DNA of 64,000 bases from an uncultured Oscillospiraceae bacterium (GTDB taxonomy: Bacteria; Bacillota; Clostridia; Acetivibrionales; DTU013). A program made the translations under genes and the position numbers. Positions 14,686 through 20,250 of the stretch are shown here, piece after piece (the stretch's first letter is position 1; each line of letters starts with the position of its first letter). The notes under the pieces were generated by a model. The model worked only from the letters and a program-made list of their open reading frames with translations, made no database searches and was not told where the DNA came from. The stretch is from NCBI GenBank assembly GCA_964587755.1, contig CAZPMC010000002.1:58514-122513 (forward strand), written 5' to 3'.

Positions 14686-16642
14686 AAACTTCATCCTCTT
14701 TATCAGGTGTATTTTTGTTTGGAAATACCTCATCCATATATTTATTCATATAAGCCGCCATATAGGGATTTGCCCTGGCTGCCTCTTTAAAATAGCGGAT
14801 TGCGGCTCTATATTCACCTTTGTCAATTGACTGCATTACATAGTTAAGGGCAATAAAGAATCTGTCTTCCTGATCCTCAAGGACACTATAGTATAATCTA
14901 AGCTTCTGTGTATCATATAAGAGCGCTGTATATTTTATCCCATAGTCCATATATCGTTTAAACAATGAATAATCCTTTTCAGATGGTTCACTTTCCAAGT
15001 TTTTTAAAATTACAGCTTTATTTAATAATAATATATATAAAATACTAATACCTGTTTTTAAGCTTTGAAAGTCATCGCGGATATTTCCGTCTGAAATGTA
15101 ATTCTCAAAGAAGCTCGTAAGCTCAGGCCTCTTATCAATAAGTATCTTAATATATTGCTTTAGTTTTGACTTTTTCAGCTTTTTAAAGATGGAAACAGTT
15201 TGCCTGGTATTCTTGTCAATATCTATAAACAGTTCGGCATAAAAATCCGGTAATTCATTGAAATCTGCCCCCCTGACTGCCGTATCCGCAAGCAGGCTAT
15301 TGCCGGTTACAGCTCCTATCCTGCTTTTATTAAGTAACGGATATAGACCTTCTTCCTGGCTAAAGAGCATAGAAAGCTCGTCATTATCTTCATGTGTATA
15401 CATTACTCTTTCTGCTTCTATTGTCGTGATAATATGCTCATTTACCTGCTTGTCCCCTGAATACTCAAGATATAACTGTTTTAATTCATCAAATTTCTTT
15501 AATTTAAGCAAAACCTTTACCAGCAGTTCAATTTTTATTTGTACGGATGTAATACGCTTCAGATACTTGTATGCTTCCTCATAATCGCCCTTGCTATATG
15601 CTTCCTTTACAATGAAAATAGCCGCATTATCCATTTCCGCAGGACACACATAGGTCATCTCTATTCCTGTATTAGAGGCAATTGATAACTCAGAAAACCT
15701 TTCAGCCATATTAATATATTTAATATAAATCTGGTATGCCTCTTCTCTTTTATCCAGTTGTATATAGGCATAAGCTAAAATATAATAAAGATCTACATAC
15801 TCAGGTACAATCTCTATACCTTCCAGACAAACATGAACCGCTTCATTAAACTCATTATTTGCACAGCACCTTGAGGCATACTCACCATATACATAACAGT
15901 GCCTCACCATTTTTTCCTTATCGTTACATATCAGCTTATATGCTTTTCGAATCTCATCCAGAGCTTTTCTTTTTTCGCGATAGGCATTATAGCTTCTTGC
16001 AAGCTGGAATCTATAGTAAACATTTTCCGGGTCCTTTTCCAGTTCGCTCATAAGAATTGAACCTGTACGCAAAAATTTCTTTTCTCTTACCTCTTCATCA
16101 ATAAATAGGTATCCATAATGCTCTAATAATAAATCCGTTGATAGTATAGGCTCTTTAAAAATTGGTTGATTATGCACTGCACCCTCATAGTGAAAGTCTC
16201 CGTCATTTCTAAATACCCTTTGCTGTGGCAATATTACCGGAGCACCTGTAGGTACAAGATTTTTTATTTTCAAAATATATGTATTAAAAGAATTGAGTTT
16301 TTTATCTGTGAGAATTGAATACAGATTCATAGGTCCTGTCAAAACTTCATCTGCGTCCAATATAAAAATAAATTCTCCCTTTGCATAGGATATTGTAATA
16401 TTTCTCATCTGAGAAAAATTCTTGTTCCATTGATGATGAAAAATCTTATGTGTATATTCCTTTGCAATATTAACCGTATTATCCTGCGAACCTGTATCTA
16501 CAATAATCAATTCAACATCTGGTTTGTCCAATAATGGTCTTAAAGCATCAAGACAGCGGCGAATATTTTTTTCTTCATCCTTAACCATCATACAAATGCT
16601 AAGCAGATATTCTCGGTCCATGTTTACTCCTCGTATACTCAT
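14678..16642 (-). CDS. GT2 glycosyltransferase with C-terminal TPR repeats (flagellin glycosyltransferase architecture, GmaR-like)
   Basis: 654 aa. The N-terminal GT2 is LSICMMVKDEEKNI...LIIVDTGSQDNT...FILDADEVL. The C-terminal ~400 aa is helical, repeat-rich and TPR-like. Sits directly downstream of the flagellin genes. Confidence 0.78.
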   Translation of the reverse strand: MSIRGVNMDREYLLSICMMVKDEEKNIRRCLDALRPLLDKPDVELIIVDTGSQDNTVNIAKEYTHKIFHHQWNKNFSQMRNITISYAKGEFIFILDADEVLTGPMNLYSILTDKKLNSFNTYILKIKNLVPTGAPVILPQQRVFRNDGDFHYEGAVHNQPIFKEPILSTDLLLEHYGYLFIDEEVREKKFLRTGSILMSELEKDPENVYYRFQLARSYNAYREKRKALDEIRKAYKLICNDKEKMVRHCYVYGEYASRCCANNEFNEAVHVCLEGIEIVPEYVDLYYILAYAYIQLDKREEAYQIYIKYINMAERFSELSIASNTGIEMTYVCPAEMDNAAIFIVKEAYSKGDYEEAYKYLKRITSVQIKIELLVKVLLKLKKFDELKQLYLEYSGDKQVNEHIITTIEAERVMYTHEDNDELSMLFSQEEGLYPLLNKSRIGAVTGNSLLADTAVRGADFNELPDFYAELFIDIDKNTRQTVSIFKKLKKSKLKQYIKILIDKRPELTSFFENYISDGNIRDDFQSLKTGISILYILLLNKAVILKNLESEPSEKDYSLFKRYMDYGIKYTALLYDTQKLRLYYSVLEDQEDRFFIALNYVMQSIDKGEYRAAIRYFKEAARANPYMAAYMNKYMDEVFPNKNTPDKEDEVYE

Positions 16643-16971
16643 TTAGTCAGGCAATCCTGCCAGTACGTAAGCAAATCCTTAATCTCAAACTCCATAATAT
16701 CTGAAAAAAGTGCTGTATCGGAGCTTCTTAACGCTTCAGTAAGCATCTCCAGCTTCTCTGTAAATTCCATCAAATCAATACCTGTGAAATATCCACCTAT
16801 GGCAGCAATGCCCTCAGCCAGCGCTTGCATGTCCTCTAGCAGATTTCCTAATCTTTCTTGATCCACTGAGCCTTCATTTCTGCAACTAATAATAATATCG
16901 TCTATTCTCTTGTTAATGTTAACGATAAGCTCAATAACCATCTGCTTTATTGCAATAATCTCGTTATTCAT
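16639..16971 (-). CDS. hypothetical small acidic helical protein
   Basis: 110-aa ORF with an AAGGAGG RBS 6 nt upstream. 4-nt ATGA overlap with the GT2-TPR gene. First gene after the flagellin terminator. No recognisable motif. Confidence 0.55.
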   Translation of the reverse strand: MNNEIIAIKQMVIELIVNINKRIDDIIISCRNEGSVDQERLGNLLEDMQALAEGIAAIGGYFTGIDLMEFTEKLEMLTEALRSSDTALFSDIMEFEIKDLLTYWQDCLTK

Positions 16972-17002
16972 CCTCTACCTCCTTAGTTTTTCTTTATTAT
17001 AC

Positions 17003-17033
17003 TAAAAGAGGCTCTGGTTAACCAGAGCCTCCT
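17003..17033 (-). terminator. rho-independent terminator after flagellin copy 1
   Basis: Minus strand reads GAGGCTCTGG-TTAA-CCAGAGCCTC followed by TTTT (10-bp perfect stem), 18 nt after the stop at 17051. Confidence 0.8.
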
Positions 17034-17050
17034 TTGATAACAATGATTTA

Positions 17051-17755
17051 CTATCTGAGTAATGCCAATACGTTCTGAGGCGCTTGATTTGCCTGAGCAA
17101 GCATAGCAGTACCAGCTTGGATGAGAATGTTGTTCTTTGTAAAGTTGGACATTTCCTCTGCCATATCAGCATCTCTGATACGCGATTCTGCAGCCTGAAG
17201 GTTCTCTGCCATTGTCTTGGTGTTCCTTACGACTGACTCCAGCTTGTTCTGAGTAGCACCAAATGCGGATCTTTGTCCGTTTACTGTTGTAATAGCAGCA
17301 GCAATACTAGCTGCAGATGAAGATGCACCTACTGTAACAGCTGTGCCAAGAACCGTTGTTCCGTTGAATTTTGTGTTAGTGTATATGTTTGTAATTGCAG
17401 ATCCCAATGAGGTCATTTCAAGCTTAAGGTTGTTCTGATCCGCACTAGCGAGAGTTGTGTCATTCAACTGCTCTGCCAGCTCTGTCAGTCTGACCAGCAT
17501 ATTGCTGACTTCATCCAGCGCACCTTCTGCTGTTTGAATCATTGAAATCTGATTCTGTGAGTTTCTTACTGACTGATTGAGCTGTCTGATCTGAGCCCTC
17601 ATCTTCTCGGAAATTGATAAACCTGCTGCATCATCTGCTGCACGGTTTATTCTTTTTCCTGATGAAAGCTTCTCCATGGACTTAGCAGCCGCTGCATTTG
17701 TGTTATACAGCTGGTTGCGGGTGTTAATTGCAGTAATGTTGTTGTTTATAATCAT
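17051..17755 (-). CDS. fliC: flagellin (short, D0/D1-only type), copy 1
   Basis: 234 aa. N-terminus is MIINNNITAINTRNQL...GKRINRAADDAAGLSISEKMRAQIRQL. C-terminus is ESRIRDADMAEEMSNFTKNNILIQAGTAMLAQANQAPQNVLALLR. Confidence 0.95.
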   Translation of the reverse strand: MIINNNITAINTRNQLYNTNAAAAKSMEKLSSGKRINRAADDAAGLSISEKMRAQIRQLNQSVRNSQNQISMIQTAEGALDEVSNMLVRLTELAEQLNDTTLASADQNNLKLEMTSLGSAITNIYTNTKFNGTTVLGTAVTVGASSSAASIAAAITTVNGQRSAFGATQNKLESVVRNTKTMAENLQAAESRIRDADMAEEMSNFTKNNILIQAGTAMLAQANQAPQNVLALLR

Positions 17756-17760
17756 AGTTA

Positions 17761-17800
17761 AATCCTCCTTGAGTTTTTATAACCGGGAATCCTTTCCCGA
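17761..17800 (-). promoter_or_regulatory. flagellin copy 1 leader: GGA-loop hairpin plus SD (candidate CsrA binding sites)
   Basis: Minus strand reads CGGGAA-AGGA-TTCCCG (17784..17799), then AAGGAGG 8 nt before the ATG. Same architecture as the CsrA-controlled hag leader of B. subtilis. csrA and fliW are adjacent. Confidence 0.55.
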
Positions 17801-17863
17801 TCTCCTGCCGGTTAGACCGGCTTCCAGTTTTTATTTGTTAAATTCTTCAGAACTAATGCTTTA

Positions 17864-18571
17864 CTACCTGAGTAACGATAATACAGACTGAGGTGCTTGA
17901 TTTGCCTGAGCAAGCATTGCAGTACCGGCTTGAATGAGAATGCTGTTCTTCGTAAAGTTGGACATCTCCTCTGCCATGTCAGCATCTCTGATACGAGATT
18001 CTGCAGCCTGAAGGTTCTCTGCCATTGTCTTGGTGTTCCTGACAACTGACTCCAGCTTGTTCTGATCAGCACCAAATTGTGCTCTTTGACCGTTTACTGT
18101 AGTAATGGCGGTGGCAATATCTGTTGCGGATGAAGTACTGCCTACAGAAACCGTACCTGTAGCAAGAACGGCCGTGCCGTTGAACTTGGTGTTCTCGTAG
18201 ATGTCATCAATAGCGTCTCCCAACGAAGTCATTTCAAGCTTAAGGTTGTCCTTATCCTCACCAGCGAGAGTTGTGTCATTCAACTGCTCTGCCAGCTCTG
18301 TCAGTCTGACCAGCATATTGCTGACTTCATCCAGCGCACCTTCTGCTGTTTGAATCATTGAAATCTGATTCTGTGAGTTTCTTACTGACTGATTGAGCTG
18401 TCTGATCTGAGCCCTCATCTTCTCGGAAATTGATAAACCTGCTGCATCATCTGCTGCACGGTTTATTCTTTTTCCTGATGAAAGCTTCTCCATGGACTTA
18501 GCAGCCGCTGCATTTGTGTTATACAGCTGGTTGCGGGTGTTAATTGCAGTAATGTTGTTGTTTATAATCAT
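17864..18571 (-). CDS. fliC: flagellin, copy 2 (hybrid: 5' part identical to copy 1, 3' part identical to copy 3)
   Basis: 235 aa with flagellin N- and C-terminal signatures. Nucleotide identity to the neighbours is described under the repeat feature. Confidence 0.95.
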   Translation of the reverse strand: MIINNNITAINTRNQLYNTNAAAAKSMEKLSSGKRINRAADDAAGLSISEKMRAQIRQLNQSVRNSQNQISMIQTAEGALDEVSNMLVRLTELAEQLNDTTLAGEDKDNLKLEMTSLGDAIDDIYENTKFNGTAVLATGTVSVGSTSSATDIATAITTVNGQRAQFGADQNKLESVVRNTKTMAENLQAAESRIRDADMAEEMSNFTKNSILIQAGTAMLAQANQAPQSVLSLLR

Positions 18572-18576
18572 AGTTA

Positions 18577-18616
18577 AATCCTCCTTGAGTTTTTATAACC
18601 GGGAATCCTTTCCCGA
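18577..18616 (-). promoter_or_regulatory. flagellin copy 2 leader: GGA-loop hairpin plus SD (candidate CsrA binding sites)
   Basis: Identical in sequence to the copy 1 leader (it lies inside the 816-bp repeat). Confidence 0.55.
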
Positions 18617-18679
18617 TCTCCTGCCGGTTAGACCGGCTTCCAGTTTTTATTTGTTAAATTCTTCAGAACTAATGCTTTA

Positions 18680-19387
18680 CTACCTGAGTAACGATAATAC
18701 AGACTGAGGTGCTTGATTTGCCTGAGCAAGCATTGCAGTACCGGCTTGAATGAGAATGCTGTTCTTCGTAAAGTTGGACATCTCCTCTGCCATGTCAGCA
18801 TCTCTGATACGAGATTCTGCAGCCTGAAGGTTCTCTGCCATTGTCTTGGTGTTCCTGACAACTGACTCCAGCTTGTTCTGATCAGCACCAAATTGTGCTC
18901 TTTGACCGTTTACTGTAGTAATGGCGGTGGCAATATCTGTTGCGGATGAAGTACTGCCTACAGAAACCGTACCTGTAGCAAGAACGGCCGTGCCGTTGAA
19001 CTTGGTGTTCTCGTAGATGTCATCAATAGCGTCTCCCAACGAAGTCATTTCAAGCTTAAGGTTGTCCTTATCCTCACCAGCGAGAGTTGTGTCATTCAAC
19101 TGCTCTGCCAGCTCTGTCAACCTGACAAGCATATTACTGACTTCATCCAGTGCACCTTCTGCTGTTTGAATCCTTGAAATCTGATTCTGTGAGTTTCTTA
19201 CCGACTGATTGAGTTGTCTGATCTGAGCTCTCATCTTCTCGGAAATTGATAAGCCTGCTGCGTCGTCTGCCGCACGGTTTATTCTTTTTCCAGAGGAAAG
19301 CTTCTCCATTGACTTGGCTGCTGCTGCATTTGTGTTATACAGCTGGTTGCGGGTGTTAATCGCCGTGATGTTGTTGTTAATAATCAT
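18680..19387 (-). CDS. fliC: flagellin, copy 3
   Basis: 235 aa. Differs from copy 2 by one residue (R72 versus M72) plus silent changes in the 5' third. Confidence 0.95.
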   Translation of the reverse strand: MIINNNITAINTRNQLYNTNAAAAKSMEKLSSGKRINRAADDAAGLSISEKMRAQIRQLNQSVRNSQNQISRIQTAEGALDEVSNMLVRLTELAEQLNDTTLAGEDKDNLKLEMTSLGDAIDDIYENTKFNGTAVLATGTVSVGSTSSATDIATAITTVNGQRAQFGADQNKLESVVRNTKTMAENLQAAESRIRDADMAEEMSNFTKNSILIQAGTAMLAQANQAPQSVLSLLR

Positions 19388-19391
19388 GATA

Positions 19392-19431
19392 AAATCCTCC
19401 TTGAACTATTTAATCGGGATTCCTTTCCCGA
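19392..19431 (-). promoter_or_regulatory. flagellin copy 3 leader: GGA-loop hairpin plus SD (candidate CsrA binding sites)
   Basis: Minus strand reads TCGGGA-AAGGAA-TCCCGA (19413..19430) and AAGGAGG (19395..19401). Confidence 0.55.
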
Positions 19432-19529
19432 TTTTTTTTGCCGGTTAGCCGGCTTATGGCTTTATGAGAACCAAAATTACTTTCATTGAGCGCGCTTCAA
19501 TTTCAGTGTATTTGCTTCTCTTGATATAT

Positions 19530-19557
19530 ATATCGGAGCAATTTTAAAAAAATTAAG
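19530..19557 (-). promoter_or_regulatory. sigma-D (sigma-28) type promoter for the flagellin array
   Basis: Minus strand reads TTAA-N15-TCCGATAT against the consensus TAAA-N15-GCCGATAT, about 140 nt upstream of the copy 3 ATG. Confidence 0.6.
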
Positions 19558-19574
19558 TGATTTTTTAAAATATA

Positions 19575-19799
19575 TTATCTGCTTTTTAGAATATTGTTGA
19601 GATTTATGCCAACATTAATATCAGATGCCTTTTTATTCTCATCAGCAATCTGCAAAAATATTTCCTTCCTGTGAATAGAAATTTCTCTAGGTGCATTTAT
19701 ACCGATTTTGACCTGGTCTCCCTGAACCTCAAGAATGGTTATTTCAATATTTTCATTTATTATGATGGACTGATCCTTTTTCCTCGCCAGTACAAGCAT
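19575..19799 (-). CDS. csrA: carbon storage regulator CsrA
   Basis: ORF 19575..19820. The canonical start [14 protein letters not shown] is at 19799 with a GGGGGG RBS 8 nt upstream. [15 protein letters not shown] motif. Confidence 0.92.
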
Positions 19800-20250
19800 T
19801 ATTATTTTCCCCCCGTCCATGGAGTTCTTCTAACACATAGTGTCTCACACCGTATCTATCCGTGTCAAGAATAAGCTGCTTCCCTTTTCTGGTGCGCCCG
19901 TTAATTATAACAGGTGCTTGCAGGTTCATAGTCATTTTGTTCATATCCTCAGGAACCACAACTATGCTGTACACTTCGACATCTGCTTCACTCATAATTC
20001 CAAGTTCTTTTAATGTCTCGTCATCCAGCTTTATCTCATAGTCCCTTTTAACGGCAAACGGATTAATCAACACAAAAGCAAGCCTCGGGTTATCAACACT
20101 TTGGAGCCATTTAAATGGTGAATTTTCTTCTTCGTTATTAATAAGCACATATTGCTTCACTGTTTCAAATCCGGGCAGCCCCCGGCTAAATCCGATTATA
20201 TCACTTTCCTTTATATCCAGCTCCCCAAAATATCTTGTTTTAAGAATCAT
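19753..20250 (-). CDS. fliW: flagellar assembly factor FliW
   Basis: 165 aa. [22 protein letters not shown]...FVLINPF...NLQAPVIIN signature. The 3' end overlaps csrA by 47 nt. Confidence 0.9.

Follow-up and report, generated by a model that had tools for sequence, protein, structure and literature searches.

An assembled three-gene flagellin array with a hybrid middle gene, probably formed by unequal recombination, in an uncultured Oscillospiraceae bacterium

The locus

Three flagellin genes are arranged head to tail on the minus strand of a 64,000-nt stretch of DNA (here called the window; contig CAZPMC010000002.1, positions 58,514 to 122,513, of assembly GCA_964587755.1) from an uncultured Oscillospiraceae bacterium (genome G+C content, 40.7%). 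In order of transcription, they are g3, g2, and g1. The array is preceded by flgK, flgL, a DUF6470 gene, fliW, and csrA (encoding a CsrA protein of 74 aa) and is followed by a DUF8042 gene and by large glycosyltransferase genes. Here, we describe the array, its closest relatives, and its probable origin. Its features, in window coordinates, are as follows.

19388-19536, minus strand: leader and upstream region of g3, with CCGATAT at 19530-19536; the two-hairpin leader design is kept
18680-19387, minus strand: g3, first flagellin of the array, parental type X (235 aa; R72, where g1 and g2 have M72; from the list of open reading frames)
17864-18571, minus strand: g2, hybrid flagellin in the middle (235 aa; 5' 309 nt of g1 and 3' 440 nt of g3; from the list of open reading frames and the gene alignment)
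17756-17863, minus strand: leader between g2 and g1, the same sequence as 18572-18679 upstream of g2 (two hairpins and the ribosome-binding site AAGGAGGA)
17051-17755, minus strand: g1, last flagellin of the array, parental type Y (234 aa; from the list of open reading frames and the gene alignment)
17001-17036, minus strand: intrinsic terminator after g1 (fold of 16990-17053, -28.2 kcal/mol; z = -7.5; followed by UUUU)
17447-18303, no strand: copy A of the perfect repeat, 857 nt (5' part of g1, intergenic leader, 3' part of g2)
18263-19119, no strand: copy B of the perfect repeat, 857 nt (5' part of g2, intergenic leader, 3' part of g3), overlapping copy A by 41 nt
17447-17487 (g1), 18263-18303 (g2), and 19079-19119 (g3), minus strand: 41-nt block, gene nt 268-308, the putative exchange interval and second-longest perfect g1/g3 identity
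17184-17227 (g1), 17997-18040 (g2), and 18813-18856 (g3), minus strand: 44-nt block, gene nt 531-574, the longest perfect g1/g3 identity and the place where contig L182 (see below) switches parent

Positions 17447-18303 and 18263-19119 were compared base by base and showed 0 mismatches over 857 nt, with a period of 816 nt (2.05 units); the match at the 816-nt offset breaks off directly beyond both limits of the repeat. Were the two repeat copies as divergent as g1 and g3 (95 differences in 705 nt), this length would hold about 115 mismatches, against the 0 found. The original prediction, which had claimed exact identity at an 816-bp period, had overlooked no mismatch. It had also described the middle gene as the leader and first 309 nt of g1 fused to the last 440 nt of g3, and the three-gene alignment agrees: g2 equals g1 over gene nt 0-308 and g3 over nt 268-707, and its 108-nt leader is identical to that of g1. 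The interval said to be the same in all three copies (nt 268-308) is indeed common to g1, g2, and g3, with differing sites on either side. Perfect identity between g1 and g3 is longest in three blocks, of 44 nt (nt 531-574), 41 nt (nt 268-308), and 38 nt (nt 27-64).

Tandem Repeats Finder did not report the array, because the 816-nt period exceeds the longest period that it handles (500). Two pairs of identical open reading frames, one of 71 aa (plus strand, 17676-17891 and 18492-18707) and one of 87 aa (minus strand, 17812-18075 and 18628-18891), overlap the flagellin genes; they are side products of the duplication, unlikely to be genes.

Overall, g1 and g3 are about 87% identical, the 95 differing sites being spread unevenly in their effect. 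In the N-terminal part, 22 codons differ with 1 amino-acid change, and in the C-terminal part, 13 codons differ with 3 changes, while the central stub (codons 104-177) has 37 differing codons with 21 amino-acid changes, including a gap. The differences had been called mostly silent, which holds for the two terminal parts and fails for the central stub. The g2 protein equals the g3 protein but for residue 72 (M in g2, R in g3). Codon 72 of g3 (window position 19173) is AGG (Arg); it is ATG (Met) in g1, in g2, and in the relative L023, and it is the sole amino-acid difference within the conserved N-terminal 89 codons. As M72 is all that sets the g2 protein apart from g3, the practical effect of g2 would presumably be to add another dose of the g3-type surface variant and not to create a new antigen.

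Precomputed Pfam assignments gave both Flagellin_N (PF00669) and Flagellin_C (PF00700) for the g2 protein, as well as for g3 and for the g1 variant on the metagenome contig L022. An exact look-up of the g2 protein matched only the window's own contig and no other assembly. The closest named homologues (about 70% identity) are flagellins from uncultured Clostridiaceae and Clostridia.

The leader of each gene has two hairpins, with GGA in the second loop, and the ribosome-binding site AAGGAGGA. Before g3 lies a sigma-D-like -10 box, CCGATAT (19530-19536), the sole one within 16600-19900; the stricter sigma-D pattern TAAA-N13-17-CCGATA had no match upstream of g3, where the -10 box alone is present. 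Both a U-tract terminator and a CCGATAT box are absent from the leader at 17756-17863 (by fold and sequence). By folding, the terminator after g1 is the only strong one of the array; a consensus terminator scan did not detect this hairpin. The duplicated unit has its own leader and ribosome-binding site but neither promoter nor terminator, so g2 would be read from the transcript of its neighbours, and g3, g2, and g1 are predicted to share a single transcript.

Two-gene relatives

Relatives were sought by exact-protein look-ups and by protein-seeded scans of metagenome and genome collections. The protein-seeded scans returned mostly distant flagellins (40-48% identity), of which only L023 and L024 were informative. 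A JGI metagenome contig (L022; 2002 nt) carries g3 (identical protein), then a 234-aa flagellin gene, then the DUF8042 gene; it equals the window minus one 816-nt unit, with 3 mismatches in 1972 aligned columns (99.85% identical). A 210-kb contig from a sister species (L183) has a pair of flagellins of 235 aa and 234 aa in a matching gene neighbourhood. The variable middle of the first (L183a) is closest to g3 (79%, versus 74% to g1), and that of the second (L183b) is closest to g1 (85%, versus 73% to g3). A two-gene parent had been predicted, with sister strains as the place to look for it, and on both L022 and L183 it is present in the form g3-g1. Because L183a and L183b correspond one to one to g3 and g1, the two-gene array is older than the split from the sister species. 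The match of both genes to g3 and g1, on L022 as on L183, indicates that two genes are the ancestral state and three the derived one.

Inside the 41-nt block, g3 of the L022 lineage carries a derived change; since the outgroups share the window's base at this site, all 41 nt have stayed intact in the lineage of the window. In a relative at greater distance (L023; 83% protein identity), a single flagellin gene occupies a corresponding neighbourhood. Other relatives in the family have tandem flagellin arrays with older, diverged copies. In a further lineage (87% protein identity), L024:1-1067 (JGI Ga0179954) has at least two tandem flagellin genes with 818-nt spacing and 3' ends that are 88% identical.

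Contigs with other junctions

Two short contigs join the parental types in other ways. L182:1-1512 (JGI sample 3300060823), from a near-identical strain, has one flagellin gene followed directly by the DUF8042 gene. This flagellin is g3-type from the promoter to the 44-nt block and g1-type afterwards, and the contig is a recombinant of the deletion type or else an assembly chimera. L185:1-915 (Logan, SRR8925798, a run with the same strain) equals the window from fliW to nt 26 of g3; beyond that point it is g1-type at 19 of 19 diagnostic sites (nt 65-267), and its last base is the final base of the 41-nt block. Either bubble popping at k = 31 or genuine conversion of the first gene could account for it. 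Beside the array, Logan contigs of SRR8925798 and of SRR8925797 match the window with 100% identity. Short contigs of the flagellin locus thus switch parent at identity blocks, and L182 and L185 could be real recombinants (natural copy-number and mosaic variation) or switches made by an assembler at shared blocks under low coverage.

That copy number may vary within the population had been part of the original prediction; the short metagenome contigs L022 (two genes) and L182 (one hybrid gene) are suggestive of such variation. Conceivably, although we hold it to be rather doubtful, the number of flagellin genes differs within natural populations, from one (a hybrid) through two to three or more, via repeated exchanges at the 44-, 41-, and 38-nt blocks. 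If so, such exchanges would reversibly shift the balance between two filament surface variants that differ in glycosylation, under pressure, for instance, from phages or grazers.

L022 and L182 both begin within 7 nt of each other (window 19487-19494), just downstream of a very AT-rich promoter region; the shared start is probably a coverage drop.

Assembly and copy number

The assembly comprises 2.27 Mb in 84 contigs (N50, 49 kb), with gaps of 10 N and 100 N. Among its 168 contig ends, 32 have an exact terminal 55-mer in common with another end and 0 have a 56-mer in common, which is the signature of a short-read de Bruijn assembly whose final k was 55. No exact repeat in the whole assembly is longer than the 857-nt one; next in length come a 430-nt tandem and then a repeat of 229 nt. 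Since the 857-nt repeat exceeds k, and none of the other exact repeats that were kept is above 430 nt, the assembler walked a loop too long to span. The 430-nt tandem (G000 contig C34:4341-4770, outside the window) is perfect, has a period of 125 nt, and adjoins a 100-N gap; apart from it and the 857-nt repeat, nothing in the assembly repeats exactly over more than 229 nt.

Model arrays of two to five genes were built, and their k-mer sets were compared. At k = 55, the two-gene model has 0 repeated 55-mers and gives a linear graph. The three-gene model needs 13 junction 55-mers that are lacking in the two-gene parent. With no 55-mer occurring twice in the two-gene form, the reads must have contained the hybrid junction. 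A repeat longer than k and a short-read assembly, the preconditions of a de Bruijn loop artefact, are both present here; a loop arising at k = 55 from a true two-gene sequence alone is not among the outcomes of the k-mer models. Up to k = 858, models of three, four, and five genes cannot be told apart by their k-mer sets, which makes three a minimum only. The earlier caveat about the assembly stands, in that a k = 55 short-read assembly cannot count the copies of this array, and the copy number in the deposited genome should be taken as "at least three."

Origin of the array

The array was probably produced by a recent unequal recombination in an ancestral two-gene array, yielding g3, the hybrid g2, and g1. 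The ancestor would have been g3-g1 in one operon, with the two genes about 87% identical overall. In a misaligned homologous exchange between sister chromosomes, the 41-nt perfect block of g1 would pair with its counterpart in g3 (template switching during replication would give the same product), and the 816-nt gene-to-gene unit would be duplicated head to tail, leaving g3, a g2 with the leader and 5' end of g1 and the 3' end of g3, and g1. The repeat period of 816 nt equals the spacing of the 41-nt blocks, the orientation is direct (head to tail), and the join is inside a stretch that is identical in both parents (the 41-nt block, second-longest). A recA gene was found in the genome. The original reading of the locus as a product of misaligned recombination gains support from these results, since the parental form was found and the join falls in a block of shared identity.

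The main rival to a three-gene array, if L185 is real, is a mixed-strain co-assembly that supplied the hybrid junction. Real genomes would then all have two genes, and the third would be a graph loop owed to a second strain, in which the 5' part of the first gene was converted to g1 type, or to chimeric library molecules. We consider such an artefact unlikely, although the k = 55 signature (32 of 168 ends with a shared 55-mer, 0 with a 56-mer, and gaps of 10 N and 100 N) speaks for it, as does the fact that the 857-nt repeat is the sole long exact repeat resolved in the assembly. A two-gene genome at this k is a linear graph with 0 repeated 55-mers, and mixed strains would require that the hybrid junction edge was retained but that an equally covered edge from the start of g3 to the 5' part of g1 was lost. 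L185 (upstream region and nt 1-26 of g3, g1-type nt 65-267, and the 41-nt block) would, if real, give a junction of g1 5' and g3 3' sequence without a third gene; it comes from an assembly at k = 31, which is shorter than the 38-nt block in which it switches, and may therefore itself be an artefact. The odd junctions of the window, L182, and L185 all fall in the three longest identity blocks (41, 44, and 38 nt, respectively), a pattern that graph artefacts predict likewise. The estimated contamination of the assembly is 0.06%, which argues against mixed strains. An excised 816-nt circle was also considered as a source of the junction and was rejected, as such a circle would not replicate.

Far less probable again is an older three-gene array homogenised by a single gene conversion at an offset of one unit (17447-18262 copied to 18263-19078, or in the other direction), with no copy gained. 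One tract of up to 816 nt would yield equally perfect identity, but L022 and L183 have two genes each, one to one with g3 and g1, and carry no trace of a third gene; with close relatives of the two-gene form, we rejected register-shifted conversion. Unequal recombination in a two-gene ancestor is thus our preferred reading, and the duplication is then a clean, ordinary product of a known mechanism, of which this instance is new.

Comparison with known systems

That unequal crossover between repeats yields tandem duplications, and that these are unstable, is established; bacterial duplications by unequal exchange between direct repeats (the rrn-mediated case of Anderson and Roth) are unstable and are lost or amplified at high rates (PMC13732712). 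The flagellin array resembles rrn-mediated duplications in its head-to-tail repeat, in a period that matches the distance between the pairing sequences, in a join within shared identity, and in the instability to be expected. It differs from them in the pairing sequences, which here would be gene segments of about 91% identity with a 41-nt perfect block rather than kilobase-long rrn or IS copies, in a unit of only 816 nt, and in a join that makes an in-frame hybrid gene.

The flaA and flaB genes of Campylobacter jejuni undergo intragenomic recombination (Wassenaar 1995 and Harrington 1997, as cited in PMC5126078). The two systems are alike in having tandem flagellin paralogues that swap segments by recombination and flagellins that are glycosylated (putatively so in the present case). 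In Campylobacter, gene number stays constant, whereas here it changes; flaA and flaB have separate sigma-28 and sigma-54 promoters, whereas the copies here appear to share one promoter and one terminator.

If real, the array is a natural snapshot of the growth of a tandem gene family, with parent, product, and perhaps a deletion hybrid no more than about 0.15% apart in sequence, and the dose of a (putatively) glycosylated flagellin variant can change in one step.

Haemoglobin Lepore and anti-Lepore are hybrid genes formed by unequal crossing-over between tandem paralogues. The three-gene flagellin product is the counterpart of anti-Lepore, its middle gene having the 5' end of gene 2 and the 3' end of gene 1, in a bacterial operon, unlike the haemoglobin case. 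The counterpart of Lepore would be the one gene of L182 (5' end of g3 and 3' end of g1), which may be an assembly chimera. L182 switches in the 44-nt block, not in the 41-nt block, and is therefore not the reciprocal product of the event in the window.
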